Shown here: positions 14,334 to 30,000 of the stretch, piece after piece
Numbering within the stretch: the stretch's first letter is position 1
How the letters are laid out: each line of letters begins with the position of its first letter
Origin: Thermodesulfovibrionales bacterium
Lineage (GTDB): Bacteria; Nitrospirota; Thermodesulfovibrionia; Thermodesulfovibrionales; SM23-35
Assembly: GCA_030019415.1 (NCBI GenBank)
Contig: JASEEX010000008.1
Span: forward strand, 1 to 57,026
Direction of reading: 5' to 3'
DNA: 57,026 nucleotides
Notes under the pieces: model-generated
What the model was told of the DNA's origin: nothing
Database searches by the model: none
The model's input: only the letters and a program-made list of their open reading frames with translations
Made by a program: the position numbers and the translations under genes

Positions 14334-14894
14334 TAAAGCAAGCTGCCACGCAGCACTCAATCCCCAGGACCTCCACCAATGACAGCTATTGTATGTCCTG
14401 ATGGTTTTTCCGTCTTTGGTGCTGGCAGGTCAATGGCAAGGCGTCCGTATTTATCAATGCTAAGAGGTTTGTCAAGCTGTCCCCTCGTGCAGCCCTGCAT
14501 GCAGAGGTTTGGACATATCTGTCCACATACCGTTGCAGGTAACGGGCTATATTGCAAAACCAGTTCCAGCGCCTCATGGAGTTTGCCCTGTCTTATAAGA
14601 GAAGCCCTTTTGTGTGAGGGTATATGTGTTGGGCATGCATACGCACATGGTGGCGCATACTTTTCATTTGCCCAGACCGGTTTATTTCGTCTATCCTTTC
14701 CTGTTGTTATATGCTGCAGCATTAAATGCACCATTGGTAACATCTCCTAAAACAGTAATTTTTGCACCACAGTTAAGCCAGCCTATGTCGTCAGAGGCAC
14801 TTCCTTTTACAATAATCTCGGTACCGAACATTCCCATGCTTCCAAGCCTCTGACCAACAGGACCCTCTACAGTTATTTTTATAGTCTCCCCCTT

Positions 14895-14909
14895 TCCGCC
14901 TGAGGCGGA
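14895..14909. repeat. 15-bp palindrome TCCGCCTGAGGCGGA
   Basis: Flanked by CCTT direct repeat; encodes SASGG inside the ORF. Confidence 0.85.
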
Positions 14910-15089
14910 CCTTGGCCAGATTCTGCCACCAATGCCATGCTGCCCATCAGCTATTATATGCAGTTCTCTTGCACCATCCCTGACCGCTTGCTGTATCTGC
15001 TCTTCAAGTATACGTGAAGGTACCCTTTTACCATTTACATTACCGTAAATGGTGACAATATCTTTTTTGTATGTCTTTTGACTGTTGAC

Positions 15090-15104
15090 TCCGCCTGAGG
15101 CGGA
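15090..15104. repeat. 15-bp palindrome TCCGCCTGAGGCGGA inside a TTGACTG heptamer array
   Basis: Flanked by TGAC direct repeat; encodes SASGG. Confidence 0.85.
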
Positions 15105-15129
15105 TGACTGTTGACTGTTGACTAATTTG

Positions 15130-15664
15130 TTAGCACGCATAACTAATCTCTAACCTCTCTGCCATTGCCTTGTCGTCTATACTCAGTCCGTCAGACATGC
15201 CAATGGGTAATTCTGTGCTCCTGCCCATTGGTGCAAATATCTTCTTTAACTCCACATTAGCAGCCTTGAAGATCTCTACCAGACGTTCAGCAACCCTATC
15301 AGAGTCAAGCCTTCTATAAAGTTTTGGGTCCTGTATAGTTATACCTCTTGGGCACTTACCTGTATTGCAGATGTTACAGCGATTATATTCGTCTCCGAAA
15401 CAATCTGCAGCCGCCTGCATTATGTATTTCCCAATAGAAACTGCTGAGCTGAACAATTCTCTGAACCTTAACAGTGGGTTCGATAGCCTTAACAGGACAT
15501 ACGGCAGTGCAACTGCCGCACCTCTTACATCTGTCGTCTCTCCAACGGATTATATATGGGAACTCCTTTAATGAGAGTTTATGATTGTAGTCTAATTTTG
15601 GGCGTAGGAGGGACTCCGTCCCTCCTACGAGACCTCCCTGAATTTTCCCTTCTATACTTATCAT
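15130..15664 (-). pseudogene. FMN glutamate-synthase subunit with most of its interior deleted
   Basis: N-terminal ferredoxin motif CKRCGSCTAVCP joined out of frame to the C-terminal CNICNTGKCPRGIT..DP segment. Confidence 0.8.
15603..15629. repeat. GTAG-type REP-like hairpin inside the ORF start
   Basis: CGTAGGAGGGA-CTCCG-TCCCTCCTACG perfect 11-bp stem. Confidence 0.7.
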
Positions 15665-15803
15665 GATATCACCCCTTTTGTTTGTATTTTCAAGGGGATT
15701 TCAAAAGGGGGAGGCTTGACGATTACCATGTCATATTTCATTGGAAATATATCCTCACATATTGCTTTTTCTCCGGTTAACCTATCTAAATTTGCTTCAA
15801 ATC

Positions 15804-15854
15804 GGCAATCGGTTACCGTATGTATATACTAAAAATTTTAAGGGCTTTTGTCAA
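15804..15854 (-). promoter_or_regulatory. sigma70 promoter plus candidate NrpR operator
   Basis: TTGACA-N17-TAGTAT (15854-15826), followed 8 nt later by GGTAACCGATTGCC (15817-15804). Confidence 0.6.
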
Positions 15855-15872
15855 ATGAGGAGTTGGGACACT

Positions 15873-16850
15873 TCACAGAAGCTCTTTAAACTTTGTGAGG
15901 TCAGAAAAACTGTAGAGGGTTGACATCGCCTTGCTCTCAGTCGGTATGCCTGCCTCTTCAAGGGCAGCGATGGGGTTAAGGCCCCCGACTATTACCATTC
16001 CTGCCCTGTCCATAGAAACAGGCATTTCAAGGAGAGGTTGGTTTGGATTGCCAAGGAGTAGAATACCTCCAATACCCTTTTCCTTCATAACAGCGCTCAA
16101 TTCTTTTGCCTTTTCAAGGCTCACAACAGGTATTTCCCTGAAACTTGCGAGGATTTTTCCATTGTGGTTTTTTACAGCACCTAAGACATCTGTCATTCTG
16201 CTCTTTATAAATATCTCAAGCGGGTCAAGGGAAGAGCCTTCATAGCTTATAAGTGCGGTGAACCTTGATGGCTCAGAGTTTTCTATCTGCAGTACACCAC
16301 CAAACTTCGATGTGACAGGCACCCCCACCTTAAGGAATATCCCGTTTATTGTCACGCTGCATACAGTGCCAAATCCTATCTGCCCCTTAGGGATGAAGAT
16401 ATCCCTAATCTTTTCACCACCTCTATGTATGACAACTTTATCAGACATGATATGCGGTGATGAAAAAACGGGCTTCATTATCCGTAGTGCTTCTTTAAGT
16501 TTTTCTTCAGGGAAATAGGAAACATTAAGAATTATGTCACCCTCTTTTTTCTCGATATCAAAATTTGTTAGATATGAGAGGGTCTCTATCTTGCTTATTA
16601 CAAAACCGACCTTTTCGGATACAAGGGCTTGGGATAGCTCTTCCCTACCTTTTTGCGTAATCATTCTACCTTCCTTCCCAAATACCTTTGTAAGACCTCT
16701 CTCATCGAGTATTCTGAGATGGTATCGAACAGTCCTTTCAGTAAGTTCTACTCCGTGGAGTTTTAACTGTCTCGATAACTCTCTTGAACCGAGTATTTTA
16801 TCTGGTTGTTTGTCAAGAATCTTTAAGATTGAAAGCATTGTCTTATTCAT
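15873..16850 (-). CDS. nrpR: NrpR nitrogen repressor (wHTH + DUF128/NRD)
   Basis: LGSRELS..L.ERTVRYHL..LDERGLT; TVCSVTINGI; ASFREIP; VGGLNP; start reset to MNKT. Confidence 0.9.
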   Translation of the reverse strand: MNKTMLSILKILDKQPDKILGSRELSRQLKLHGVELTERTVRYHLRILDERGLTKVFGKEGRMITQKGREELSQALVSEKVGFVISKIETLSYLTNFDIEKKEGDIILNVSYFPEEKLKEALRIMKPVFSSPHIMSDKVVIHRGGEKIRDIFIPKGQIGFGTVCSVTINGIFLKVGVPVTSKFGGVLQIENSEPSRFTALISYEGSSLDPLEIFIKSRMTDVLGAVKNHNGKILASFREIPVVSLEKAKELSAVMKEKGIGGILLLGNPNQPLLEMPVSMDRAGMVIVGGLNPIAALEEAGIPTESKAMSTLYSFSDLTKFKELL

Positions 16851-16851
16851 G

Positions 16852-19530
16852 TCAGGACTCCTTTTGCGGAACAATCCTCACGGCACATATCTTTGTCTCT
16901 AAAGTCTTTGCAGCCGGATCAGGAGAAGGATTAATAAGTTGGTTAATCTCCTTTTCCAAAAGATACATAGTTACTAAACCAGGTGGAGAAGCAGTCGTCA
17001 CCACTGCCTGTCCCTCTATTTCTCCCCAACGCGAAATTACTCTTACCACTTCTCCATTCTTGATCTCAAAATCAGTTGCATCTTTTGGGTTTATATATAC
17101 AAGCCTTTTTGCTCTTAAGGCCTTGAGTCCATCAACTTTCTGTGATAAAATGCCGTCTGAGTAAATATCCCTCTCTGCAATTAAGATCAGTGGGTAATCA
17201 ACATCGGGGACCTCCGCAGGGGGTCTGTATTGTAATGGTGTAAATTTGTACTTTCCATTTTGACCAGTCAAGCTTGTTTCAGCAAGATCAGACCATTTTA
17301 AACTACCTTTTCTCAGGCTGTTGTAAGAGATGTTTCTATATATAGGTGTGACTGATGCAATCTCAGACATAATATCTTCAGGGTTATTAAAATCAAATCC
17401 TCTACTGCCCATCCTCTCTGCTAAATTACAGATAATCTCCCAATCTGGCCTTGAATTGCCAATCGGCTCCATCGCTTTATTGATAATTTGAACCCGTGTC
17501 TCCGTATTTGTAAAAGTTCCATCTTTTTCGGCAAAGCTTGCTGCAGGTAAGATGACATCGGCAAATTGAGCCGTGTCATTTAAGAAGATGTCCTGAAAGA
17601 TGATGAATTCTGCCTTTTTTAATGCCTCCTTAACTTTATGTGAGCCGGCTATATTTGATACAGGATCAGAGCCCATGATATAGAAGGCTTTTATCTTTCC
17701 TTCTAAGGTATCCTGTAGTATTCCGGTGAGGGTTAGCCCGGGATTTGGGTTTAGGTCCTTTCCCCAAATGGATTTAAATCTCTTTCTCATTTCAGGTTGG
17801 TCCACTGCTTGGTACCCAGGATAAAAATCAGGTAGACAACCCATGTCGCAGACACCCTGCGAATTATTGTGGTCCATGAGTGGGTTAATACCATAGGAAG
17901 GCTTTGTAATGTTTCCTGTGAGCATAGATAAATTGATAAGTCCAAGCACATTATCTGTGCCATGAGAGTATTGAGTGAGCCCACTGGACCAGAGTATCGC
18001 TGATGGTTTATTAGTTGCAAAAATCTTCGCAGCCGAAGCAACCTTATCCCTTGAAACACCGGTAATCCTTTCTACTTTTCCAGATGGGAAATCATCTAAG
18101 GAATTTTTGAAGTCCTCAAAATTCTCACACTTTTCCTGGATAAAGGCATTATCGTGTAATTCTCCATCTAAAATTGCTTTGCACATACCCATAAAAAGGG
18201 CTAAATCTGTTCCAGGATAAGGTCTCAGCCATACTTTGGCGAAGCCACATAGGTCAATCTCTATGGGACTGACAACGATGAGTATTGCTCCATTCTCCAC
18301 TGCCTTCTTTACCCTCAACCCTATCACAGGATGGGACTGAGTGATATTTGCTCCCACAATAAGGATACTGGCGGCATTCTCAATCTCACTAATAGAGTTA
18401 GTGAGGGCATTTATTCCGTTTGTCTTAAGAAGAGCAGTAATAGAAGGAGCATCGCATAGTCGAACAGAACTATCAATGTTATTCGTGCCCATTACTACCC
18501 TGGCAAATTTTTGTGCGATATAACTCTCTTCATTAGTGCACTTAGTTGATGCGATAAGGGCAAACTCATCTCCTCGATAATTTTTAAGTTTACTCGCAAC
18601 TAAATCCAATGCTTCATCCCAGGATACTTCTCTGAAAAGTGACGGGTGACGAGTGACGAGTGACGAGTTTTTATTAGAAGATATTCTTATAAGAGGTGAG
18701 GTCAGCCTATCCTGAGAGTTAACAAAACTCAAGCCGAACCTTCCTTTAACGCACAGACGTCCACTGTTAACGGAGCTGTCAGCATCTCCTCTCACATTTA
18801 CAACAACATTGTCACGGATGCCAAGAACGATACTACAACCCACACCACAATAAGGACAGATCGTCTTGACTTCGTGCGAAGGACGGCGAAGATTTTTTGG
18901 TACCAGAGCACCAACAGGACACCTGACCACACATTCTCCACAGGACTCACATCTGGACTGGGCTATGGGCTTGTCTCCGAGCGTGGCTATTTTGGTGGAA
19001 TAACCCCTACCTGCGAAGTCAATAGCACTAACCTTCTGTATTTCCTGACATGTTCTTACACATATCCCGCATAGCACACATTTATTATGATCTCTTATGA
19101 AAAATGGATTTGAGTCATCAAGAGGCAATTCCTCTTTTGGGAATCTCAGATTCTGTTGAATCCTCTTTTTGTCTATCTTCATATAACCCATGATTCTCTG
19201 TAATTCGCACCGTCCCTTTTTAGCGCAATTTTTGCAATCCATGTGGTGATTGGCGATTATCATCTCAATAATCGGCCGCCGCACTTTATCTAATTCAGCG
19301 CTCTTTGTCTTAATGACCATCTCTTCCTTGACAGGTGTTCTGCATGAAGTGACAAGCTTACCATCATCCAGTTCAACAAGACATACACGACAGCTTCCAG
19401 CAGGCTTCAAATCAGGATGGTAGCAGAGATGGGGAATATAAATCTTGTTAGCCAATGCAGTTTCTAAAATGGTAGCACCTTTGTGAGCCATAATATCTTG
19501 ATCGTTAATTTTTATTGAAATCTTTTCCAT
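16852..19530 (-). CDS. FdhA/NuoG-like molybdopterin-family Fe-S protein with atypical active site
   Basis: [2Fe-2S] (C..GSCRVC..C), HHMDCKNC..C, two CxxCxxCxxxC, CPYCGVGC..CVKG; RLCDAPS and PLMDHNNSQG replace the FDH motifs RLCH and PLRGQNNVQG. Confidence 0.85.
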   Translation of the reverse strand: MEKISIKINDQDIMAHKGATILETALANKIYIPHLCYHPDLKPAGSCRVCLVELDDGKLVTSCRTPVKEEMVIKTKSAELDKVRRPIIEMIIANHHMDCKNCAKKGRCELQRIMGYMKIDKKRIQQNLRFPKEELPLDDSNPFFIRDHNKCVLCGICVRTCQEIQKVSAIDFAGRGYSTKIATLGDKPIAQSRCESCGECVVRCPVGALVPKNLRRPSHEVKTICPYCGVGCSIVLGIRDNVVVNVRGDADSSVNSGRLCVKGRFGLSFVNSQDRLTSPLIRISSNKNSSLVTRHPSLFREVSWDEALDLVASKLKNYRGDEFALIASTKCTNEESYIAQKFARVVMGTNNIDSSVRLCDAPSITALLKTNGINALTNSISEIENAASILIVGANITQSHPVIGLRVKKAVENGAILIVVSPIEIDLCGFAKVWLRPYPGTDLALFMGMCKAILDGELHDNAFIQEKCENFEDFKNSLDDFPSGKVERITGVSRDKVASAAKIFATNKPSAILWSSGLTQYSHGTDNVLGLINLSMLTGNITKPSYGINPLMDHNNSQGVCDMGCLPDFYPGYQAVDQPEMRKRFKSIWGKDLNPNPGLTLTGILQDTLEGKIKAFYIMGSDPVSNIAGSHKVKEALKKAEFIIFQDIFLNDTAQFADVILPAASFAEKDGTFTNTETRVQIINKAMEPIGNSRPDWEIICNLAERMGSRGFDFNNPEDIMSEIASVTPIYRNISYNSLRKGSLKWSDLAETSLTGQNGKYKFTPLQYRPPAEVPDVDYPLILIAERDIYSDGILSQKVDGLKALRAKRLVYINPKDATDFEIKNGEVVRVISRWGEIEGQAVVTTASPPGLVTMYLLEKEINQLINPSPDPAAKTLETKICAVRIVPQKES
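18639..18667. repeat. GTGACGA heptamer array (4 units) within the fdhA-like gene
   Basis: gtgacgg gtgacga gtgacga gtgacga g; encodes SSLVTRHPSL between PLIR and FREVSWDEA. Confidence 0.85.
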
Positions 19531-21164
19531 CAGTCACTCCCCTTCCGAACCCTACACACGCCGGATGGACACCTTTTTTCGTATATATGTGCTTCATACT
19601 CATCGCGAAAGTAACGCAGGGTAGTTAGCACAGGGTTAGGGGCCGTCCTGCCGAGACCACAGATGGAACTCCTCCTTATTGCCTCACCTAATTCTATGAG
19701 GAGGTCCATATCCTCAGGCCTGCCCTCGCCTTTAGTTATATCATCTAAAATCTCGAACATCTGTTTTGTTCCCAGCCTGCAAGGGACACACTGACCGCAG
19801 GACTCCCTCCGGGTAAAATCGAGAAAGTAACGTGCTACATCGACCATACAGGTATCTTCGTCCATCACTACCATACCTCCAGAACCCATTATTGAGCCAA
19901 TTTTGGTAAGAGAATCAAAATCTACAGGCGTATCTATCATATCTGCTGGTATACATCCACCAGAAGGTCCGCCTGTTTGAACAGCTTTCAGGGCTTTGCC
20001 TCCTGGTATTCCGCCTCCTATATCGTAGATGATTTTTCGAAGGTTAATCCCCATGGGAACCTCTATGAGACCGCAGTTTACAACCTTACCTGTCAATGAA
20101 AATATAGCAGTACCTTTACTTTTCTCAGTACCTTTTTGAGCAAACCACTCTGATCCATTCGATATTATTAAAGGGATATTGGCAAAGCTCTTCACATTAT
20201 TGAGAAGGGTTGGCCTGTTCCATAATCCTATCTCTGTTGTTCGAGCACGAGGCATCGGCTTAGGTCTCCCCCTCTTCCCCTCGATAGAGCGTACTAATGC
20301 AGTAGATTCACCACAAACAAAAGCACCTGCTCCCTGAAAGATCTCTATATCGAAATCAACCTCACTGCCCAAGATATGGCCACCAAGAAACCTGTTTTGC
20401 CTTGCCTGCTCAATAGCAATCTTTAGCCGCTTCACTGCTAATGGGTATTCTGCCCTCACATAGATAAGGCCGTTTCTGGCCCCTGTGGCATAACCTGCAA
20501 TTATCATCCCCTCCAAGACTGAATGGGGGTTTCCTTCCATAACAGAACGGTCCTGGAATGCTCCAGGGTCGCCTTCATCAGCATTGCATATTACATACTT
20601 TTCTTCACATGTTGTTCTGCGGCATGCCTCCCATTTGAGGCCAGTAGGAAAACCAGCGCCACCAAGACCCCTTAGCCCTGAGCCCTTAACTTCAAGGATA
20701 ATTTCTTCAGGGGTCATTTCAAGAAGGGCCTTACGAAGTGCCTGATAGCCCCCAACAGTAAGATAATCATCAATGTCTTCAGGGTCAATTTTCCCACAAT
20801 TTTTTAGGAGAATTCGTTCTTGTTTACTATAAAATGGAATATCCCGATAATGTGGTATTGGCTTGCCAGTGATAGGTTCTCGATAGAAAAGACGCTCTAA
20901 TGGCTTCCCTCCAAGTAAAATGGAATGGGCAATCTCAACGGCATCATCAGGGTTTACTTTTGTATAGAAAAAACCTTCAGGTTCTATTACAACAATAGGT
21001 TCTTGTTGGCAGAAACCTTGACAACCAGTTCGTTTAACATGGATATTTTCTGTGAGGTTCAAATTGCTTACTTCTTTTTCTAAGGAGGAAAAAACTTTTT
21101 CGGCTCCCACAGATATCCCACATGTTCCAAGGCCGACTAAAATACTCTTCTGTTCATTGGTCAT
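19530..21164 (-). CDS. NuoF/HydB-like FMN diaphorase with N-terminal thioredoxin-like Fe-S domain
   Basis: GTCG..GCQGFC; GLRGLGGAGFPTG; NADEGDPG; CGESTAL; GGPSGG; CGQCVPCR..C; no C-terminal 2x[4Fe-4S] domain. Confidence 0.9.
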   Translation of the reverse strand: MTNEQKSILVGLGTCGISVGAEKVFSSLEKEVSNLNLTENIHVKRTGCQGFCQQEPIVVIEPEGFFYTKVNPDDAVEIAHSILLGGKPLERLFYREPITGKPIPHYRDIPFYSKQERILLKNCGKIDPEDIDDYLTVGGYQALRKALLEMTPEEIILEVKGSGLRGLGGAGFPTGLKWEACRRTTCEEKYVICNADEGDPGAFQDRSVMEGNPHSVLEGMIIAGYATGARNGLIYVRAEYPLAVKRLKIAIEQARQNRFLGGHILGSEVDFDIEIFQGAGAFVCGESTALVRSIEGKRGRPKPMPRARTTEIGLWNRPTLLNNVKSFANIPLIISNGSEWFAQKGTEKSKGTAIFSLTGKVVNCGLIEVPMGINLRKIIYDIGGGIPGGKALKAVQTGGPSGGCIPADMIDTPVDFDSLTKIGSIMGSGGMVVMDEDTCMVDVARYFLDFTRRESCGQCVPCRLGTKQMFEILDDITKGEGRPEDMDLLIELGEAIRRSSICGLGRTAPNPVLTTLRYFRDEYEAHIYEKRCPSGVCRVRKGSD

Positions 21165-21627
21165 TCTTAACTCCTTCAATCACGGGAGGAAATAGCTCAT
21201 CGACTTTTTCTGAGGTCATTTCACCTACGACGTCCATATTTACCCGTATACATGGCGCAAGGGCACAACAACCAAAACAGGCAACGGTCTCGAGGGTATA
21301 CTCAAGGTCATCTGAGGTTTCCCCCTCTTTTAAGCCAATCGTTTTTTCTATCCTGTTAAGGATTTGAGGTGCACCTCGAATATGACATGCAGTTCCCCTG
21401 CATACTGCAATTCGCTTCCTCCCTAAAGGTAAAAGTCTGAACTGTGCATAGAAAGAGGCGACAGAGTAAACATGGCTTTCAGGAACACCGATAAATTTTG
21501 CAATATCTACCATTGACTTCTCTGGCAGATAACCAAGATTATCCTGCACCTCCTGAAGAATAGGTACAAGCTCGCCCCTATCACCTCGATAGGATGCTAA
21601 AATCTCTTCTAAAAGCTCCTCTTCCAT
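21154..21627 (-). CDS. NuoE/HydC-like [2Fe-2S] subunit
   Basis: VASFY, CRGTACH, CFGCCALAP. Confidence 0.92.
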   Translation of the reverse strand: MEEELLEEILASYRGDRGELVPILQEVQDNLGYLPEKSMVDIAKFIGVPESHVYSVASFYAQFRLLPLGRKRIAVCRGTACHIRGAPQILNRIEKTIGLKEGETSDDLEYTLETVACFGCCALAPCIRVNMDVVGEMTSEKVDELFPPVIEGVKNDQ

Positions 21628-21635
21628 ATCTTTAA

Positions 21636-21866
21636 CTAACGAGCCTTGGGTCTAACCCAATCTTCAGGAACCCATGGCCTCTTAGCCTCAAGATTTCTAT
21701 CAAAGCTTAAAGAAATACACACCGCACGGCAGATACCGCATCTATTGCACTTATCTGTGTCGGCATAAACGTTATTATCTCTCTCAGATATACTTATTGC
21801 CCCTGTAGGACAGCTAACCTCACAGAAAGGTGATACACAGTATTTATAGCAAATTAAATTCAGCAT
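21636..21866 (-). CDS. Small 4Fe-4S ferredoxin-like protein
   Basis: CYKYC..PFCEVSCPTGAI, CNRCGICRAVC; AAGGAGG RBS. Confidence 0.8.
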   Translation of the reverse strand: MLNLICYKYCVSPFCEVSCPTGAISISERDNNVYADTDKCNRCGICRAVCISLSFDRNLEAKRPWVPEDWVRPKAR

Positions 21867-21876
21867 CTTTACCTCC

Positions 21877-23442
21877 TTATCCTAAGATTTTTTCTACTTC
21901 TTTCATGTCTGCTTCCATTACATATGGTATGCCAGAGACATCCGCTGCTTCGCGAGTAAGGGACATCAAGTCACCTCTATCTACTAAATTAAGAACAAAT
22001 TTACGAGCCCCTGCCATGAGCTGCTTGAGCCCCACCGCGAGTCTGTCATAATAAGTATAGACACCTATTGCTGCTGGAGGTATTTTCTTAAAATCTCCCC
22101 CATATTTTTCCTTGAGCGCTGCGGCACCGGCAAAGGTGCGAAGAAGGGCATCCTCATATTCCCTGCCCTTTCCATAAGTCTCTTGTAGAAGTTTTCCCTG
22201 CGTCTTTCCTACCATGCCTGCTGTGAGGGTAGCCCGCCCCATACATACCGCTTTCACGTAAGGGGCTCCAAGTGCTATAGCCTTGAAAATCTGGTCCTCA
22301 AGGACAATACCACCAGCTATGGCGACGCTGGGGATAAATTTACCCTTTTCTTCGAGTCTTTTTAAAAATTTATAAAGGAGGCTTTCGAGATAGACCGTGG
22401 GGATTCCCCATTCATTCATCATCCGCCAGGGGCTCATACCAGTCCCTCCGCCGGCTCCATCCACAGTTAGAAGGTCTATTCTGGCCTCCGATGCAAACTT
22501 CACTGCACGGGCTAAATCTGCTGGCCTGTAAGCACCTGTTTTGAGGGTAACATACTTAGCACCTATACTCCTCAGCCTTTCCACCTCTTCTAAGAATGAT
22601 TCTTCATCTACCATTCCGAGGCGGGAATGCCTCTCAAATTCTGGTATCCCTCCAAGTTTATGTGCCTCCTGGACTACAGGATTCTCAGGGTCAGGGATAA
22701 CGATATATCCCCTTTGCTTAAGTTGTATCGCCCTTTCGAGGATTGGTAGCTTAACCTCCCCACCAATGCTCTTTGCCCCTTGTCCCCACTTTATTTCGAT
22801 ACCTTCAACCCCGAGCTTCTCTATCGCATATTCAGGGACGCCGAGACGGGTATCCTCCACATTTGCCTGAATGAGCATCGTCCCATAGCCTTCATACCAA
22901 TCCTTGTAAACCTTTACCCTTCTTTCAAGTTCAGGGGATCTCGAGATCCCTCCATTTCTAAACTCTGCATTTGGGTCCATTCCGCAAACATTCTCACCAC
23001 AGACAAGGACGGATCCACTGATAGCTATGCCAATGGCAGTACCTTCCCAGTTTACCCTCGCTATTTCAGTCGAACCGAGGGCTCCAGTGAAGAAAGGGAC
23101 TTTCATCGGAATTCTTTTTCCATCAGTCCCAATCTCTGAAGACACACTCACAGCAGGGAATGTGGCCTTGTCAGGGTCGGGCTCAATACCCATAGCCCCG
23201 ACACATGTGCCCTGAATATTGAAGTGCGAAAAATCTACTGGATAGTCCTTTTCTGACCCGGAGATAACCTTTCCAAAAGGCTGCGGGTAAATAACCTCCC
23301 TTCCCCGAAGGGCAGATCTTCCAACCTCGCAGTAACCAGGACAACCATCCACACAGTTAACGCATAACCCGGAGGTAGGCGAAGGCGCTACCCTCGTCGT
23401 TGTTACAGTTGCTGCACTTGCATTTGGCTTACTTAGACTCAT
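21877..23442 (-). CDS. Stand-alone FMN-binding glutamate synthase family protein
   Basis: IEIKWGQGAKSIGGE, LKTGAYRP, DGAGGGTG, AIAGG, LGAPYVKAVCMGR; N-terminal CVNCVDGCPGYC; no amidotransferase domain. Confidence 0.88.
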   Translation of the reverse strand: MSLSKPNASAATVTTTRVAPSPTSGLCVNCVDGCPGYCEVGRSALRGREVIYPQPFGKVISGSEKDYPVDFSHFNIQGTCVGAMGIEPDPDKATFPAVSVSSEIGTDGKRIPMKVPFFTGALGSTEIARVNWEGTAIGIAISGSVLVCGENVCGMDPNAEFRNGGISRSPELERRVKVYKDWYEGYGTMLIQANVEDTRLGVPEYAIEKLGVEGIEIKWGQGAKSIGGEVKLPILERAIQLKQRGYIVIPDPENPVVQEAHKLGGIPEFERHSRLGMVDEESFLEEVERLRSIGAKYVTLKTGAYRPADLARAVKFASEARIDLLTVDGAGGGTGMSPWRMMNEWGIPTVYLESLLYKFLKRLEEKGKFIPSVAIAGGIVLEDQIFKAIALGAPYVKAVCMGRATLTAGMVGKTQGKLLQETYGKGREYEDALLRTFAGAAALKEKYGGDFKKIPPAAIGVYTYYDRLAVGLKQLMAGARKFVLNLVDRGDLMSLTREAADVSGIPYVMEADMKEVEKILG

Positions 23443-23575
23443 CTTCTTCCTCCTTAATTAAGTTGAAAGTTAAAAGTTTAAAGTTAGGACATGTCCCCCA
23501 GACCACATTGTCACCCGCATAGAGTAAGTCTATGAGGTTGTCGAGGTCATCTATGCCAGATGATATTTGACTCAT
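23429..23575 (-). pseudogene. N-terminal remnant of a KaiC/RAD55-like-domain protein fused to heptamer repeats
   Basis: MSQISSGIDDLDNLIDLLYAGDNVVW, then repeat-derived NFKLLTFN; not in ORF track; family call from recall. Confidence 0.5.
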
Positions 23576-23579
23576 AATA

Positions 23580-23633
23580 GGTAAACGGTTACCTTTTGAC
23601 AATCATTTTAAAGATTCGCAGAATATTTTTCAA
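23580..23633 (-). promoter_or_regulatory. sigma70 promoter plus candidate NrpR operator
   Basis: TTGAAA-N17-TAAAAT (23633-23605), followed 11 nt later by GGTAACCGTTTACC (23593-23580). Confidence 0.65.
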
Positions 23634-23726
23634 GATGGTTCCTGCACTGCCTTCTTTTTTCTCGACGGTATGCAAAATGACTTTTGATGGTACTCGAAAA
23701 GAATTATTGTCCCCAGGAACTGCAAT

Positions 23727-24332
23727 TTGATAAACTTCCCCATGTTCAATAATCAAGCAGCTGAACTCACATTAGAAAAAAAATTGTACCAATTAGTTAT
23801 CAGCAGGCTTGATGGATACAATATCCATTCTCAGGCGTATAAGGAAAAGATATTTAAACTCGTAGAAAAAGGAATTGGTGGATTCGTAATCTTTGGTGGA
23901 AGAAGAAATGAGATAAAGGGTTTCATTAACAAAATCCAGTCCATCTCAGAGATTTCTTTATTCATAGCATCAGATGTTGAATGTGGCGTGGGGCAGCAGA
24001 TCAAGGATGCAACCCTATTTCCATGCCAGATGGCTATGGCAGCGGCAATCGGTAGAAATATACCCGGAGATGTCATACCCCCTGGAAATACAATAAAGGC
24101 TATAGCTCAGGAATCGACAGATATTGGAATAAATATGCCCCTCATTCCGGTCCTGGATGTTAATCAAAATCCTGATAATCCAATTATCTGCACAAGGGCC
24201 TTCTCTGACAATCCTGAGGATGTGGCGTGGTTCGGCTCAGAGTATATAAGAATATTGGAGGGATCAGGCCTTATAAGCTGTGCCAAGCACTTTCCAGGAC
24301 ATGGAGATACGGCTGCAGATTCTCATATATCC
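23727..24332 (+). pseudogene. nagZ: GH3 beta-N-acetylhexosaminidase (NagZ-like), 3'-truncated
   Basis: ASDVECG, PVLDVN.NP.NPII..RAF, KHFPGHGDT..DSH, then an abrupt switch into AmpG sequence. Confidence 0.8.
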
Positions 24333-25003
24333 TATCAACATTTTTGGGTTCCGAACCAGAGGAGAGAATAACTCCTCCTTTTAGCCTCCAGGAGGCTGTA
24401 TTAGGTCCGTTAAAGGATTATTTTTCGAGAAACGCTACCATTCCGCTGCTATTTTTAATAGTGCTCTACAAGTTAGGAGATGCCTATGCAGGTGTCTTAA
24501 CCACAGCCTTTCTTATAAAGGGCATCGGGTTTTCGGCAAGCGAGATAGGTACAATAAACAAAGGGCTTGGCCTCGTCTCCCTGATAGCAGGTGCCATGTT
24601 CGGAGGCTCCTTAATGGTACGCCTTGGCCTTTTCCGCTCTTTACTCAGCTTTGGCATATTGCAGGCATTATCCAATCTCTCATTCGTGTTTCTCACATGG
24701 ATAGGTAAGAGTTACGGGATGCTGATTTTTGCTGTTGCCTTCGAAAATCTGAGTGGTGGTATGGGCACGGCAGCCTTTATTTCACTCCTTATGGCAATGT
24801 GCAATCATCGCTACACAGCAACACAATATGCACTGTTGTCATCCCTTGCTGCCCTTGGGCGGATATTTATCGGCCCCACTTCTGGTTTTGTGGCTGAAGC
24901 ACTGGGCTGGGCCGGCTTCTTTTTCATTACAGCTCTGTCGGCTCTGCCCGGATTGTGGCTTTTGTGGTGGCTACGTCATGAGGTATCAGCTTTGGAAAAG
25001 TAG
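24328..25003 (+). pseudogene. ampG: C-terminal half of AmpG muropeptide permease
   Basis: LYKLGDA, FENLSGGMGT.AF, TATQYALLSS; N-terminal half absent. Confidence 0.8.
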
Positions 25004-25076
25004 AAGGGGTTAGTATATCTGAGAGTGGTTTGATATAATTGCGGAGGCCCTATGGACGAGATAATCAAAGAGGATC

Positions 25077-25985
25077 ATGAAAATGAAGACTATTGATATT
25101 CATACCCATGGCATAGGTGGTTATGATATAAGAACGACTGCTGAGGAGGACATTCTTAAAATAGCAGAAATACTTGGCTCCTACGGAGTCTCAGAAATCA
25201 TACTCACCGTATACTCTGCTCCCTTAAAGGTAATGATGGAAAGTATGATGGCAGTCAAAAAGGCAATGGAGAAGCAAAAAGACATTTCAAATCCCCCACC
25301 CCCCTTTTCTAAAAGGGGGCATGGGGGGATTAATCACCCATCACGAATAATCGGCGTTCATCTTGAAGGACCCTTTCTGAATCCATCAAAATGCGGTGCC
25401 CTCAATGCAATGACATTCATCGAACTAACAGAGTATAACCTCAGGGAACTCCTTGAAGGTTTTGAGGATATTGTAAAGATAATAACTATTGCACCAGAGA
25501 TAAAGGGGGCTACAGGGTTTATCAAAAAGATATCAGATAGGGGAATCATTGTCAGCATGGGTCATTCTGATGCGACCTTCTCAGAAGCAGAGGCTGGTCT
25601 TAATGCAGGGGCGAGAGGTATCACGCACATCTTCAATGCAATGCGAGGTTTTCATCACAGAGAGCCTGGAATTGCTGGTTTTGGCCTTTTAAATAAGGAC
25701 ATTTATATTGAGGTTATAGCAGACCCCTTTCATTTACACCCAAAGACACTGGAGCTGATATTCAGAACAAAGAATCCCGGAAGGATAATAATTGTTTCTG
25801 ATTCAGTAAAAGAGACACCCTCCCCCTCACTCCCTCCCTTTGCTATTACTGATACTCAAGGCAGACTTCGGGGTGGCTCGATGACAATTGTTGAATCCTC
25901 AAAGAGATTAATCCAGATGGGATTTGACAAAGTCGTTATTATGGGATGTATAACTACGAATCCCGAAAGATACCTATCAGTGTGA
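25077..25985 (+). CDS. nagA: N-acetylglucosamine-6-phosphate deacetylase (compact)
   Basis: DIHTHG, HLEGPF, GHSDA, THIFNAM, VSDS; carries a hairpin-derived insert. Confidence 0.85.
   Translation: MKMKTIDIHTHGIGGYDIRTTAEEDILKIAEILGSYGVSEIILTVYSAPLKVMMESMMAVKKAMEKQKDISNPPPPFSKRGHGGINHPSRIIGVHLEGPFLNPSKCGALNAMTFIELTEYNLRELLEGFEDIVKIITIAPEIKGATGFIKKISDRGIIVSMGHSDATFSEAEAGLNAGARGITHIFNAMRGFHHREPGIAGFGLLNKDIYIEVIADPFHLHPKTLELIFRTKNPGRIIIVSDSVKETPSPSLPPFAITDTQGRLRGGSMTIVESSKRLIQMGFDKVVIMGCITTNPERYLSV
25290..25331. repeat. C/G-rich hairpin inserted in frame in nagA
   Basis: AATCCCCC-ACC-CCCCTTTT-CT-AAAAGGGG-GCAT-GGGGGGATT; encodes NPPPPFSKRGHGGI. Confidence 0.65.
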
Positions 25986-26001
25986 ACCCGGGTTTTTAAA
26001 C

Positions 26002-26527
26002 TCACGGTGGTATCATCTTACCCAGAATCACCTCATGGGTGGCTCCTGTTGCAGAGGGAAGGTTTCCGGGCTTTAGATTCAGGGTTTGATATCCCAGGAT
26101 AGCAAAATTGATTGCCTCCTTAGACTCAGGAGGGAGTTGATCCTGCCTTTCTTCCAGACGGTGGGATATGGTATATATTCTGACCATGAGAGGCGATGGC
26201 ATCTATGTCTTCTGGTCTGAATTCCGTACCTTTAAGGAGAGTCAAAGCAGCCCTCGCAAAGACCTCTCCTAATTTAAAATTCAATCTACAAATATGCTCA
26301 ACATTGCCTTTAAATGCCATTCCTATCTCATTTCTTAAAGATCTGTTAAAAGGCAGATGAATATGGTTGATGAGCTTAATCTTTATCTTATTGGAGTTAT
26401 ATCCTTCACTTATTTTATTATTCAAACCTTCTCTTATCTCTACGAGAGCAGCATCGACGCCGTCATGGGATGTCCCTGACATGAGACCTATAATCCTTGC
26501 ATTTCTCTTTTTTGCAATCTTGAACAA
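26002..26527 (-). pseudogene. anmK: Anhydro-MurNAc kinase with large internal deletion
   Basis: GLMSGTSHDGVD..SHGQ..H..GST joined out of frame near 26134 to the C-terminal KEA..FA.L..PGNLPSATGA..VILG. Confidence 0.88.
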
Positions 26528-26528
26528 A

Positions 26529-27413
26529 TTATCCTACCCCGAGAGCCTTCCTCAAAGAACCTCCCATTTTTTCAAGGAGATCTATTGCATCCTCATAGCT
26601 TAGCTTCTTTATATACATCACTATGGCAATCTTTGCATTACCACCTGATTTTTCAAGGAATGCCTTAGCATCTTCATGACCACATCCTGTTGTATCCTGA
26701 ATTATTCTTAAGGCACGACCTTTTAACTTTTTACTTGAAGGAACAACATCTACCATGTAGCCCTTATAAACTCTACCGAGCTTTATCATGGTAGTAGTAG
26801 AGACTATATTTAAGACTATTTTAGTAGCCGTTCCTGCCTTAAGCCTGGTTGAACCTGCAATAATCTCGGGTCCTACAGAGACCCTGATTACTCCATCGGG
26901 AAAATCATATTCCTTATTGCTACATGTCAAAAGCCAGCACTTAGCACCTCTTCGTTTACCCTCTCTTAAAGCAGATATTACAAAAGGAGTACTACCACTG
27001 GCAGTTATGCCTAAGAGCATATCCTTTTCTTTTATATCCGAAACAGCCTTCCTTCCAGCGTCTTCATCATCTTCTGCGCCTTCCACTGCTGTGGTAATAG
27101 CCTTTTCTCCTCCTGCTATGATTGCCCTGATTATATTGGTGGGCAGATTAAAGGTCGGCTGCATCTCTGAGGCATCAAGCATGCCGAGTCTGCCACTTGT
27201 TCCCGCCCCAACATAAACGATGCTCCCCCCGGAGACTATAGTGTTGATTGCATCCTTTGTAGCCATGGATATGGAGTCCTTTGCATCCTTAATAGCCTTT
27301 ACAACATGCAGGTCTTCACCATTCATGATGCCTATAATCTCTTCCACGGAAAAGAGATCGATGTCTGCAAAGCGGGGGTCAATATCCTCAGTAGACATAG
27401 GATATGGTAGCAT
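26529..27413 (-). CDS. murQ: MurNAc-6-phosphate etherase
   Basis: GAGTSGRLG.LDASE..PTF, EGAEDD, GPEIIAGSTRLKAGTA.K, MVDV. Confidence 0.95.
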   Translation of the reverse strand: MLPYPMSTEDIDPRFADIDLFSVEEIIGIMNGEDLHVVKAIKDAKDSISMATKDAINTIVSGGSIVYVGAGTSGRLGMLDASEMQPTFNLPTNIIRAIIAGGEKAITTAVEGAEDDEDAGRKAVSDIKEKDMLLGITASGSTPFVISALREGKRRGAKCWLLTCSNKEYDFPDGVIRVSVGPEIIAGSTRLKAGTATKIVLNIVSTTTMIKLGRVYKGYMVDVVPSSKKLKGRALRIIQDTTGCGHEDAKAFLEKSGGNAKIAIVMYIKKLSYEDAIDLLEKMGGSLRKALGVG

Positions 27414-27530
27414 AAAGTGATTTCATAGCGAATTTTTGCAAAATGTTACAGTTTAAATCATCAAGGGTCTGGTTATTAGTCATTACATGTTTGGTTATTG
27501 GAATTCGGTCATTGGTTATTATAATAGTGT

Positions 27531-28412
27531 ATGAGAGCTCTCGAAAAATTGAGGGAAGCAACAGAATTTCTTAAAAAGTGTGATATCGAGGATGCCAGCA
27601 GAGAGGCGGAGATTATTATAACTCATTGCCTCGGAACAGATAGAGCGGCCTTTTTCAGAGATAATCCTGGAATTCGAGAAAACGAACTTGGAAAGATTGA
27701 TGAATTCCTGAATAGAAGGTCAAAAAGAGAACCTCTTCAGTATATCCTCGGATATGTAGATTTTTATGGATTGAAGATAAAGGTGGGCAAAGGAGTCCTT
27801 ATTCCGAGACCCGAGACAGAGCTGTTGGTTGAAGAAGCCATAAATATAATTTCGAATTTCGCCCTGAACTTGATTCAGGGTCGAATTTCGAATTTAAAGC
27901 TCCTTGATCTCTGCACTGGTAGTGGTTGTTTAGCCCTTGCTCTTGCCAAAGAGTTTCCCGATGCACAGGTCTATGGCACTGATACATCAGAGATTGCGAT
28001 TGGATATGCAAAGGAAAACGCAGAGTTAAACGGAATCAAGAATGTGAAATTTCTCAAAGGCTCATTATTTGAACCAGTCGAAGGGCTACTCGGCACCTTT
28101 GACCTGATAGTCTCAAACCCGCCTTATATTAAAAGGAATGATATAAAAAGTTTACAGCCAGAGGTTAAAGACTGGGAGCCTATAGAGGCGCTGGATGGAG
28201 GGGAAGACGGCCTCGATTATTGTAGGGCCATAATCCCCGAGGCAAAGAGTTATCTGAAAGAAGGAGGGTGCCTCATACTCGAACTCGGGTTCGACCAAGC
28301 AGATGCAGTAAGAAAAAATGCTCAGGATGCAAGCTTTATAAATATATCTTTAATAAAGGATTATGCAGGGATTGAGAGAATATTTGTGGCCGAATTACTA
28401 AGGAGGTCATAA
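27531..28412 (+). CDS. prmC: Release factor glutamine methyltransferase
   Basis: REPLQYI, VLIPRPETE, DLCTGSG, NPPY, ALDGG.DGL. Confidence 0.96.
   Translation: MRALEKLREATEFLKKCDIEDASREAEIIITHCLGTDRAAFFRDNPGIRENELGKIDEFLNRRSKREPLQYILGYVDFYGLKIKVGKGVLIPRPETELLVEEAINIISNFALNLIQGRISNLKLLDLCTGSGCLALALAKEFPDAQVYGTDTSEIAIGYAKENAELNGIKNVKFLKGSLFEPVEGLLGTFDLIVSNPPYIKRNDIKSLQPEVKDWEPIEALDGGEDGLDYCRAIIPEAKSYLKEGGCLILELGFDQADAVRKNAQDASFINISLIKDYAGIERIFVAELLRRS
27848..27895. repeat. AATTTCG heptamers with nested 19-bp palindrome CCCTGAACTTGATTCAGGG in prmC
   Basis: Palindrome 27862-27880 flanked by TCG; encodes ISNFALNLIQGRISNL; sibling at 9835-9853. Confidence 0.8.
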
Positions 28413-28439
28413 GTAACAACACATAACGTTGTAATTCCT

Positions 28440-28533
28440 GTCATTCCCGCTTGCCCCGTTAGAAAGCTTATTTCTAACGGGGCTTGTCGGGAATCTTTCT
28501 TTTCAGAATGATTGCGGACAAGCCGCAATGACA
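28440..28533. repeat. REP-like doublet interrupted by a 29-bp micro-element
   Basis: GTCATTCCCGCTTG[insert]TCGGGAATC..GATTGCGGACAAGCCGCAATGACA. Confidence 0.75.
28454..28482. mobile_element. 29-bp micro-element CCCCGTTAGAAA-N5-TTTCTAACGGGG
   Basis: 4-bp TSD CTTG (28450-28453, 28483-28486). Confidence 0.88.
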
Positions 28534-28587
28534 AACAAACTGTCTTACTTAGTAACTAATGTTATAGTTTATCAAGGAGAATTACTG

Positions 28588-30000
28588 ATGGGTATTTTTG
28601 AAGAAAACAGACGACTTGAAGAGCTTGACAAAAAGTGCATCTGGCATCCCTTTACCCAGATGAAGGAATGGCTTGAGGAAAAGCCAATGATCATCTCTGA
28701 GGGTAGAGATTGTTTTATAAAGGACATTTATGGCAGATGGTATCTTGATGGTGTCTCATCTCTCTGGGTAAATATCTATGGGCATAGAAAGAAGGAGATA
28801 GATGATGCAATAAAGGAACAGATTGATAGCATCGCCCATAGCACATTACTCGGACTGAGCAACGCCCCTGCAATCAAGTTAGCAGAAAAACTCGTACAGA
28901 TAGTTCAGAGGTCATTTTCACTGAAATCTGAGATCCGATCCGCCTCAGGCGGACCGAAATCCGAATTATGCAAGGTTTTCTACTCTGATGATGGCTCAAC
29001 TTCTGTAGAGGTTGCCCTCAAGATAGCATTTCAGTACTGGAAGAATAAGGGAATTGATGGAAGGAACATATTTGCCTCCCTTAACAATGCCTATCATGGC
29101 GATACAATAGGTGCTGTAAGCGTTGGCGGTATCGATATATTCCATAAGACCTTTGAGCCGCTTCTCTTTAAGACCTATAAGGCACCTTCTCCCTATTGCT
29201 ATAGATGTGAACTCGGGATGGATTATCCAGGATGTAATCTCGCATGCCTTGATAAGATGGAAGAGATATTCAAGGCCAATCCAGGCGAGATAGCTGCAAT
29301 GATTATCGAGCCTATGATACAGGCAGCAGGTGGGATGATAACCTCTCCGCCGGGATATCTTAAAGGTGTTAGGGAATTGTGTACTAAATACGGTATCCTG
29401 ATGATTGCCGATGAGGTAGCAACAGGTTTTGGACGCACGGGAAAGATGTTTGCCTGTGAACACGAGAATATTGTGCCTGACATTATGTGTTTGTCAAAGG
29501 GAATTACAGGTGGATATATGCCACTCGCTGTAACTCTTACTACAGATGAAATATTTAATGCATTTCTTGGAGAGTTTAAAGACTTAAAGACATTCTTTCA
29601 CGGTCATTCGTATACAGGGAATCCGCTCGCATGTGCTGCAGCCCTCACATGCCTCGATCTATTCGAGAAAGAGGAGGTATTGAAAAATCTTAATGGAAAG
29701 AGCAAGATCCTTGAGGCATGGCTCAAGGAGGTTTTGAATCTCAGACACGTAGGAGATGTCAGGAATATAGGACTGATGGCAGGTGTAGAATTAGTGAGAG
29801 ACAAAGAAACAAAGGAACCCTACGACTGGGCAGAGAAGATGGGATGGCGCGTTGCATATCATGCGAGAGAGAATGGAGTCTTCATCAGACCTCTCGGAAA
29901 CATCATGGTCATCATGCCGCCGTTGAGTATAAGTCCTGAAAACCTCAATCAGTTACTCAAGGTAATTAAAGACTCTATAACTGCAGTAACAGAGAGTTAG
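28588..30000 (+). CDS. bioA: DAPA aminotransferase
   Basis: WHPFTQM, SSLW, GSTSVEVALK, YHGDT, DEVATGFGRTG, SKGITGG, HGHSY; AAGGAG RBS before ATG at 28588. Confidence 0.95.
   Translation: MGIFEENRRLEELDKKCIWHPFTQMKEWLEEKPMIISEGRDCFIKDIYGRWYLDGVSSLWVNIYGHRKKEIDDAIKEQIDSIAHSTLLGLSNAPAIKLAEKLVQIVQRSFSLKSEIRSASGGPKSELCKVFYSDDGSTSVEVALKIAFQYWKNKGIDGRNIFASLNNAYHGDTIGAVSVGGIDIFHKTFEPLLFKTYKAPSPYCYRCELGMDYPGCNLACLDKMEEIFKANPGEIAAMIIEPMIQAAGGMITSPPGYLKGVRELCTKYGILMIADEVATGFGRTGKMFACEHENIVPDIMCLSKGITGGYMPLAVTLTTDEIFNAFLGEFKDLKTFFHGHSYTGNPLACAAALTCLDLFEKEEVLKNLNGKSKILEAWLKEVLNLRHVGDVRNIGLMAGVELVRDKETKEPYDWAEKMGWRVAYHARENGVFIRPLGNIMVIMPPLSISPENLNQLLKVIKDSITAVTES
28939..28953. repeat. 15-bp palindrome TCCGCCTCAGGCGGA inside AAATCCG-type heptamers in bioA
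   Basis: Flanked by CCGA direct repeat; encodes RSASGGP. Confidence 0.85.

Follow-up and report, generated by a model that had tools for sequence, protein, structure and literature searches.

The SDR4, SDR5, and SDR6 families of small dispersed repeats (SDRs) were reportedly described by Elhai and coworkers in 2008 as hairpin-forming sequences of 21-27 nucleotides (nt), and the genomes that host SDRs are rich in heptamer tandem repeats. The Rickettsia palindromic elements (RPEs), which are about 100-150 bp in length, were reportedly found by Ogata and coworkers in 2000 to sit in frame inside open reading frames (ORFs). According to excerpts of the literature on these families, SDRs show hallmarks of mobility and enter other short palindromes precisely, SDR5 of the Nostocaceae being placed between nucleotides 3 and 4 of HIP1 (PMC4390886, PMC5861425), the families SDR1 to SDR8 are restricted to the Nostocaceae (PMC5861425), and RPEs are inserted in frame in ORFs that still encode functional proteins (PMC3733652). 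Similar excerpts place intragenic repetitive extragenic palindromes (REPs) notably in the replication and repair genes UvrABCD, RecBCD, and DNA polymerase I (PMC3733652), and associate REPs with the REP-associated tyrosine transposase, RAYT (PMC3116915). The present work concerns a perfect palindrome of only 15 nt, TCCGCC-N3-GGCGGA, three copies of which lie in a 57,026-nt stretch of contig JASEEX010000008.1 (hereafter, the window) from a bacterium of the Thermodesulfovibrionales. The palindrome is probably a non-autonomous, proliferating micro-repeat, and several small hairpin families, of which it is one, occur in this family of the Thermodesulfovibrionales.

The genome that holds the window, G000, is a metagenome-assembled genome (MAG) of 1.94 Mb in 166 contigs, with a GC content of 42%; the main comparison genome, G001, belongs to the same genus. 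As a preliminary description of the window had reported, the sequence TCCGCCTGAGGCGGA lies at 14895-14909 and 15090-15104, and TCCGCCTCAGGCGGA at 28939-28953, with the 4-nt direct flanks CCTT, TGAC, and CCGA, respectively. The sequence and its ORFs confirm SASGG as the reading of every one of the three copies, with ...PRSASGGKG... and ...QSSASGGVN... for copies 1 and 2 in the ORF at 14691-15140 and ...IRSASGGPK... for copy 3 in BioA. The features concerned are as follows.

14895-14909, as written on the plus strand: palindrome copy 1, TCCGCC-TGA-GGCGGA, with the minus-strand reading S-A-S-G-G and a net gain of 18 nt relative to G001
14892-14912, minus strand: copy 1 with its flanking 3-nt duplication, AGG/palindrome/AAG on the coding strand (originally AGG/AGG), from comparison with genomes G013 and G007
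15090-15104, either strand: palindrome copy 2, after the fourth base of a GTCAnnn heptamer in the minus-strand reading, from the sequence and its alignment with G001
15078-15124, minus strand: heptamer array around copy 2, TGACTGT on the plus strand and GTCAACA on the minus strand, spanning codons 7-20 of the ORF
15063-15068, minus strand: A-run (T-run on the plus strand), one base shorter than in G001, which restores the frame after the +19 of copy 2, from the G001 alignment
14691-15140, minus strand: ORF with copies 1 and 2, homologous to the middle of an open frame of about 800 amino acids (aa) in relatives (GQHGIGGRIW motif) and apparently truncated in G000
28939-28953, either strand: palindrome copy 3, TCCGCC-TCA-GGCGGA, read as S-A-S-G-G in BioA
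28906-28956, plus strand: BioA loop insert of about 16-17 residues, composed of degenerate heptamers (gaaatct gagatcc ga ... ccgaaat ccgaatt) and the palindrome
28528-30000, plus strand: intact bioA, 490 aa, encoding adenosylmethionine-8-amino-7-oxononanoate aminotransferase (Aminotran_3, E 6.9e-103; solved structure 3dod, E 3.9e-157)

The repeat is real and its abundance is far beyond chance. When TCCGCC-N3-GGCGGA was sought in G000 and 30 relatives, with the reversed pattern as a control, G000 was found to hold 50 perfect copies, together with 11 that carry one stem mismatch, and the backward-read control occurred 0 times in G000 and 0-1 times per genome across the relatives. The degenerate pattern, which has three matches in the window, had none in 100 of 100 dinucleotide-preserving shuffles. 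No other hairpin with a perfect 6-bp stem is as common in G000, the next being TCCTGC-N4 (25 copies) and CCTGAA-N5 (23 copies). The loops of the 50 copies read TCA/TGA in 28 cases, TTA/TAA in 11, TCT/AGA in six, TTT in four, and GAA in one. Copy number varies sharply among the relatives: G001 has 21 copies, four genomes from four other genera of the family have 12, 18, 58, and 71, and each of the other 25 genomes has 0-6. A shorter, 12-nt unit was considered and rejected, as the 12-mer occurs 32 times and in 28 of these is part of the complete palindrome of 15 nt. Literature searches for such repeats in Nitrospirota gave no report of them. Among 2.9 million viral contigs, 66 exact matches were found, mostly in GC-rich DNA (mean 58%), which by a rough estimate is near chance level. 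A few viral contigs hold two to four copies, and in several of moderate GC content (L345, L372, L373 (one 16-kb contig), L342, and L343) two or three copies lie beside G001-like hairpins, GTAGGGGCGTAT...ATACGCCCCTAC. Phages or proviruses in related hosts are a possible source of these contigs.

The structure of the insertion sites was read from G000 and G001, the sole pair used for junctions, which share about 85-92% protein identity; approximately 1.53 of the 1.7 Mb of G001 was fetched, and all palindrome sites were aligned. A site was resolvable when both 18-nt flanks were recovered in the other genome with no more than four mismatches, as was the case for 26 of the 50 G000 sites (15 others had diverged flanks and nine were unmapped) and, in the reverse direction, for nine of 20 G001 sites. 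Starting from G000, the full palindrome was common to both genomes at six sites, four of them perfect in both (one of these differing in the loop only) and two altered by a single stem mismatch in G001; one further site had it in common as a 12-nt variant. In place of the palindrome, G001 had 3 nt at ten sites, 6 nt at three, 4 nt at one, 7 nt at one, and a different palindrome at one; the flanks overlapped by 3 nt, as in a duplication, at two sites, and one site was an array artefact. Starting from G001, four sites were common to both genomes, two had 3 nt in G000, one (L027:4333) showed a 3-nt duplication with flanks that were 100% identical, one lay in a heptamer array and showed an overlap of 4 nt, and one had another hairpin instead. 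When the events confined to one genome were pooled, the palindrome stood in place of exactly 3 nt (net +12) in 12 of 21 and was accompanied by a 3-nt duplication (net +18) in three of 21, and a plain insertion of 15 nt was seen in none of the 21. Likewise, the whole-genome spectrum of gaps between G000 and G001 has a peak at 12 nt, with 29 gaps as compared with eight of 11 nt and ten of 13 nt, and many of these 12-nt gaps are the TCCGCC palindrome. As these alignments show, copies have been gained, lost, or replaced locus by locus on the time scale of species divergence; the usual event is the exchange of one codon for five (+12), with a minority of 3-nt duplications of the form A(A/G)G (+18).

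The preliminary description had proposed something different, namely, a 15-bp mobile unit that duplicates a 4-bp target, for a net +19, with the reading frame rescued by a change in heptamer number or a nearby 1-nt change. The three window copies, each with identical 4-nt flanks, do lend themselves to this explanation, as does the genome-wide count: immediate flanking repeats of at least 4 nt accompany 12 of the 50 copies, relative to 0.8% of random positions. Against it, 11 of the 12 copies, judged by eye from the printed flanks, sit in heptamer arrays. Where array sites could be compared with G001, the empty allele keeps a whole heptamer, and the net change is +12, in three of four cases. 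Specifically, TGACTCT in G001 corresponds to TGAC plus the palindrome at C33:16042 in G000, GTCAATA in G001 corresponds to GTCA plus the palindrome at C80:17164 in G000, and CACGATT in G000 corresponds to CACG plus the palindrome at L023:19547 in G001. In array copies, the palindrome takes the place of the variable last three bases of a heptamer of four plus three bases and, because the empty alleles keep a complete heptamer, the 4-nt "duplication" is the array's own period.

The exception is the copy at 15090, where G001 has four heptamers and no palindrome, and where G000 is longer by 19 nt, or +12 plus one extra heptamer. The A-run that is one nucleotide shorter in G000 lies 25 nt away, and this pairing of a +19 with a 1-nt change speaks for a unit with a 4-bp duplication. 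The preliminary description had the third copy beside a G-run that may have lost a base; there is no such G-run, and the compensating 1-nt change is in the A/T run at 15063-15068, by the second copy. Among the resolvable events outside arrays that were confined to one genome, none had a 4-nt overlap, and the flanks at 14895 stem from a 3-nt AGG duplication, as discussed below. That genuine 4-nt duplications would have been seen is apparent from a control in the same pair of genomes: a co-resident hairpin family of 29-33 nt, CCCCGTTAGA...TCTAACGGGG, had a 4-nt overlap in six of six simple events, so the junction method detects real duplications. The alignments show a 4-nt duplication solely within heptamer arrays, where it derives from array periodicity, 15090 excepted (+19 with a nearby 1-nt offset), and a unit with a 4-bp target duplication is scarcely credible as the general explanation. 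A 4-nt overlap, in short, was seen only in an array, and what the preliminary description took for the signature of the element gives way to 3-nt replacement and 3-nt duplication.

The copies are greatly enriched beside such arrays. Perfect runs of period 7 number 130 in G000, as compared with eight or fewer for any other period from 3 to 12, and the preliminary placing of two window copies within heptamer arrays holds good. In a lag-7 test that used 16-nt flanks (25-nt flanks proved too strict, recovering 3/50 copies), 13 of the 50 copies were adjacent to an array, relative to 1.1% of random positions, and at a stricter threshold the figures were 9/50 and 0.44%. The G000 arrays consist of many unit types, some of them in genes (PurL, TrpE, CarA, LpxK, and BioA), and they resemble the short tandem heptamer repeats of heterocystous cyanobacteria.

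A weak preference for the target can also be discerned. With each copy oriented such that its loop reads TCA, TTA, or TCT, the base at position -1 is A in 26 of the 50 copies and that at -2 is C or A in 35. Read by eye, the replaced triplet begins with A in 11 of 15 of the +12 events, and the duplicated triplets are AGG, AGG, AGG, and AAG. Together, the A-biased flanks and these triplets mean that the +12 and +18 classes both fit one weak target, A|ANN|G. Microhomology between target and element was considered as well and rejected, since about four of the 15 replaced triplets resemble TCC or GGA at two of three positions, which is roughly chance.

The polarity of the events can be judged from relatives. 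At the two DnaG sites, correctly aligned relatives (about half of the loci were set aside because the wrong frame had been picked) read S-D-(E/A/G/S)-R and S-K-G-D, relative to S-SASGG-E-K and S-SASGG-G-D in G000. The palindrome alleles are thus derived, and one ancestral codon (D or K) has been lost. The opposite model, which takes the empty allele for the footprint of an excision, was rejected at both DnaG sites, as the outgroups carry a codon that is absent from G000. Empty sites in orthologues, for which the preliminary description had suggested an alignment of bioA, were found in G001, in the DnaG outgroups, and at the 14895 locus, and the BioA loop is short in order-level relatives.

At 14895, the site was surveyed in 23 relatives with a readable locus (one locus had no match). 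On the coding strand it is filled in three genera, as AGG/TCCGCCTCAGGCGGA/AAG in G000, AGG/TCCGCCTCAGGTGGA/AGG in G013, and AGG/TCTGACTCAGGCGGA/AGG in G007, with one stem mismatch in G013 and two in G007, and it is empty (CCA AGG GGC GAG) in G001 and 19 other relatives, or 20 of the 23. Judged from these alleles, the copy is a +18 insertion of old date that duplicated 3 nt (AGG); it is common to three genera and has since decayed in two. Its CCTT/CCTT flanks are that 3-nt duplication, a single subsequent substitution, and an adjacent base that happens to match. Copies 1 and 2 lie in a glutamate-synthase-like locus (14357-15664, minus strand) that itself looks like a gene remnant: about 620 nt is gone after 14712, along with most of the upstream coding sequence for the FMN domain, and four short ORFs are left. 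The locus may be a pseudogene of G000 or a fault in the MAG assembly.

Thirty-seven of the 50 copies lie in open frames, measured from stop to stop, of at least 140 aa. A Pfam search with 20 palindrome-bearing frames from other contigs and three window frames gave matches for 19 of the 20, for BioA, and for a prmC-like gene, and 23 copies lie in 20 host genes confirmed in this way (the 19 frames plus BioA). Replication and repair genes, namely, those for DnaG (two copies), DnaN, PolA (three copies, all between the 5'-3' and 3'-5' exonuclease domains), UvrA, and RuvB, hold eight of the 23 copies and make up five of the 20 host genes. Other hosts encode two Mur ligases, LeuRS, AspRS, PurL, LpxK, TrpE, CarA, CdhD, and Gmk, as well as two molybdopterin oxidoreductases, a Methyltransf_28 protein, a PMT_2/PAP2 protein, and BioA. 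The 23 copies are read as S-A-x-G-G in 15 cases, as P-P-x-A in four, and as R-L/Q-R-R in four, and the excess of S-A-x-G-G fits selection for a harmless, flexible linker. These reading frames show that a large number of copies occupy the loops and linkers of core genes in frame, mostly as S-A-x-G-G; old copies decay. In G004, a DnaG insert of about 20 residues (SSHSEQKHQLSTDSHLQRLNKQH...; C120:3500-3800, L295) lies near the Toprim domain, has no obvious hairpin, and has no counterpart in G000.

Aligned with structure 3dod, BioA shows a single 16-residue gap, at query residues 127-142, which is the insert. In order-level relatives the loop is short, for example, SSFIPSSLAK. Members of the family carry, in the same loop, CCCCC...GGGGG hairpins (read as PPxxxKGG) or arrays of heptamers or octamers, with far longer composite inserts in G013 and G017, and G001 carries an unrelated GC-rich palindrome of similar length. 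These differing inserts mark the BioA loop as a permissive site with rapid hairpin turnover. The preliminary description had seen here a repeat of the insertion type, extremely small, by which intact proteins gain peptides, and this view is borne out, given the intact BioA, the gap in 3dod at the insert, and a copy number that ranges from 0 to 71 among genomes.

It might be asked whether the palindrome is instead a selected motif: a dimeric protein might bind it, for example, or it might act as a hairpin signal in RNA or DNA, as an uptake sequence, or as an inverted pair of GGCGGA-type sites, of a kind recognised by type IIS enzymes. Its stems are conserved while its loops vary, the hairpin is predicted to be stable (-8.9 kcal/mol as RNA and -5.9 as DNA), and the four sites of six that are perfect in both G000 and G001 would be consistent with such a role. 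Nevertheless, the many genes that hold copies do so at positions unrelated to one another, three reading frames are used, and the copies show no positional regularity relative to gene ends; some related genomes have none at all, and relatives carry unrelated hairpins or nothing at the same sites. Orthologous old copies also decay, as seen in G007 (two mismatches) and G013 (one). Selection for a motif is, thus, quite improbable.

A more serious alternative is that no dedicated mobile element exists, and that host replication and repair make and exchange palindromes at permissive sites, with existing copies as templates. They might do so by switching templates or correcting quasi-palindromes, by capturing fragments of hairpins where DNA breaks, or by short-patch gene conversion that involves hairpins and heptamer arrays. 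Nesting of the palindrome is in keeping with this idea. In G000, G001, G013, and G018, many copies lie centrally in other palindromic repeats (gtcattccc...gggaatcc, gtcattgcgag...cgaagcaatc, and gtcattct...agaatgac), where they replace 3-7 central nt; examples in which the centre of another palindromic repeat has been replaced are C81:9956, C88:13786, and C111:7218, together with G018 and G013 copies. At one site (L184), a longer nested form, TCCGCCCGCC-TGA-GGCGGGCGGA, stands in place of a plain copy. Junctions with a loss of 2-7 nt, as in break repair, and a 23- to 41-fold enrichment of copies beside slippage-prone heptamer arrays point in the same direction, as does the lack of any transposase association in the searches described below. 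Set against these are the constancy of the inserted sequence (50 perfect copies relative to 11 with one mismatch) at targets that mostly have no homology to it, with about four of 15 replaced triplets matching the element ends at two of three positions, roughly as expected by chance; the regular loss or duplication of 3 nt at a weak A|ANN|G, which looks enzymatic; and the sharp differences in copy number between related genera. Host repair as the whole explanation is, therefore, possible but rather unlikely.

If the palindrome is the proliferating micro-repeat that is favoured here, its movement could be envisaged as follows. Integration would occur at a break staggered by 3 nt, at the weak target A|ANN|G; filling in of the overhangs would yield a duplication (+18), and trimming of the overhangs would yield a loss (+12). 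The activity would act in trans and could come from any of the numerous Y1/HUH transposase paralogues or from host repair, and selection would retain only those insertions that preserve the frame and are structurally harmless. That such cut-and-replace integration moves the palindrome, and probably the sister CCTGAA hairpin described below, is a doubtful proposition, to be held a good deal less firmly than the proliferation itself.

Several observations weigh against the favoured reading or its proposed mechanism. To begin with, the co-distributed transposase envisaged in the preliminary description was not found by any of three approaches. Matches to PF01797 (Y1_Tnp) were counted in 31 genomes, and their numbers did not track those of the palindrome; G002 has 22 Y1 matches and 0 palindromes, and G018 has 17 and 71, respectively. 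The nine Y1 genes of G000, eight of them non-IS200 paralogues, all lack a palindrome within about 5 kb on their own contigs, and none of 40 Y1 loci fetched from nine relatives contains one. Finally, best-hit identities among 44 homologous ORFs, of which 39 came from those 40 loci and five from G001, revealed no Y1 paralogue restricted to palindrome-rich genomes. Beyond this, we know of no characterised transposition chemistry whose outcome is the replacement of 3 nt, and the staggered break is a step that we infer. Several sites, among them C55:19835, C100:58010, C79:5193, and the BioA loop, hold a different GC-rich palindrome in G001, and different palindromes at the same site could point to turnover by repair or gene conversion instead of transposition. 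The 14895 site, filled in three genera and empty in the sister species G001, needs either precise loss or recurrent insertion. As only one pair of genomes, at about 85-92% protein identity, was available for junctions, these may have changed after insertion. Among public sequencing runs, one contained part of the window (share 0.19), in contigs of a relative that is about 95% alike, and no empty or filled alleles were readable in it. The high-depth contigs of that relative break at palindrome and array regions, and its BioA loop aligns only with several small indels.

One Y1 gene does have a hairpin at hand: at C132:120-779 of G000, an ORF for a 219-aa Y1 transposase has the hairpin ttACACCTccgAGGTGTaa on both sides, a RAYT-like arrangement for a different repeat.

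Additional small repeats share the genome with the palindrome, and one of them lies in the window.

27848-27895, plus strand: sister 17-nt hairpin CCTGAA-N5-TTCAGG (CCTGAACTTGATTCAGG, at 27863-27879), in an AATTTCG heptamer array of the prmC-like methyltransferase gene

At this prmC-like site, G001 has 2 nt instead of the hairpin, for a net +15, and the same replacement of 2 nt by the CCTGAA-N5-TTCAGG hairpin (net +15) was seen in three of three events between G000 and G001. The commonest repeat words of G000 (ACCCCGTTAGAA, with 84 occurrences) belong to the CCCCGTTAGA...TCTAACGGGG family, for example, at C80:22960, C111:45196, and C78:85549; the flanks in events of this family are often TTTA/TAAA-like, and many of its net insertions are of 33 nt. 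Several 15-mers of G000 are present 21-39 times; examples are CAAATCCAGCGATAA and a block longer than 30 nt that starts with TTGCCTCATCAAAAATCTATA. They probably represent CRISPR repeats or a further family of repeats.

Should the micro-repeat prove real, it would bring the lower size limit for proliferating DNA repeats to 15 nt, and it would show how selfish hairpins can insert short linkers into core enzymes and leave these unbroken, in the poorly studied Nitrospirota (class Thermodesulfovibrionia). Cut-and-replace integration, if true, would be frame-neutral by construction, such that the smallest known mobile DNA, at 15 nt, could inhabit genes that are essential, among them dnaG, dnaN, polA, and uvrA, and heptamer arrays of the GTCAnnn type, with four constant and three variable bases, could then be by-products or preferred landing pads. 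The replacement or duplication of 3 nt provides a concrete, testable junction signature. In addition, the palindromes and their associated heptamer arrays fragment assemblies, make hypervariable loops in marker genes, and could mark strains finely.

How, then, does this palindrome compare with the systems already described? Like REPs and REPINs, it is a short, GC-rich, dispersed stem-loop, sometimes intragenic, whose copy number varies among related strains, and its bias toward replication and repair genes echoes the bias of intragenic REPs that is left unexplained in an excerpt of PMC3733652. Unlike them, it is perfect and only 15 nt long, with a 6-bp stem and a 3-nt loop, whereas REPs are imperfect and of about 20-40 nt; the flanks of the 50 copies have no conserved GTAG or CGTC tag; and the copies lie largely in open frames (37/50), whereas REPs are predominantly extragenic, downstream of ORFs. 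No Y1 or RAYT gene is flanked by the palindrome and the counts of the two are unlinked, so it falls outside the REP/RAYT system as defined by its transposase.

[quoted passage not shown] The CCCCGTTAGA family differs in its 4-nt overlap in six of six simple events, relative to the 3-nt replacement in 12 of 21 for the palindrome. A DDE-type MITE is expected to show a duplication of fixed length at every copy, whereas here a 3-nt duplication was seen in three of 21 events and a 3-nt loss in 12 of 21. Single-strand transposition of the IS200/IS605 type, which places the element 3' of a fixed tetra- or pentanucleotide and neither duplicates nor removes target bases, is not a match either, as the flank is not fixed and target nucleotides are lost or duplicated.

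Like the SDRs, the palindrome is a very small hairpin that occurs in contexts unrelated to one another and also inside other short repeats or palindromes; it differs in sequence and phylum (Nitrospirota), in its length of 15 nt, and in being recorded in frame within core genes and in place of 3 nt. With RPEs it shares an in-frame position in hosts that stay open and retain their full Pfam architecture (BioA, DnaG, DnaN, PolA, and others), although at 15 nt it adds only 4-6 residues, and the host of RPEs is an intracellular alphaproteobacterium. Taken as a whole, these likenesses suggest that the palindrome is best filed with the palindromic micro-repeats of the REP, SDR, and RPE type, among which it would be exceptionally small.

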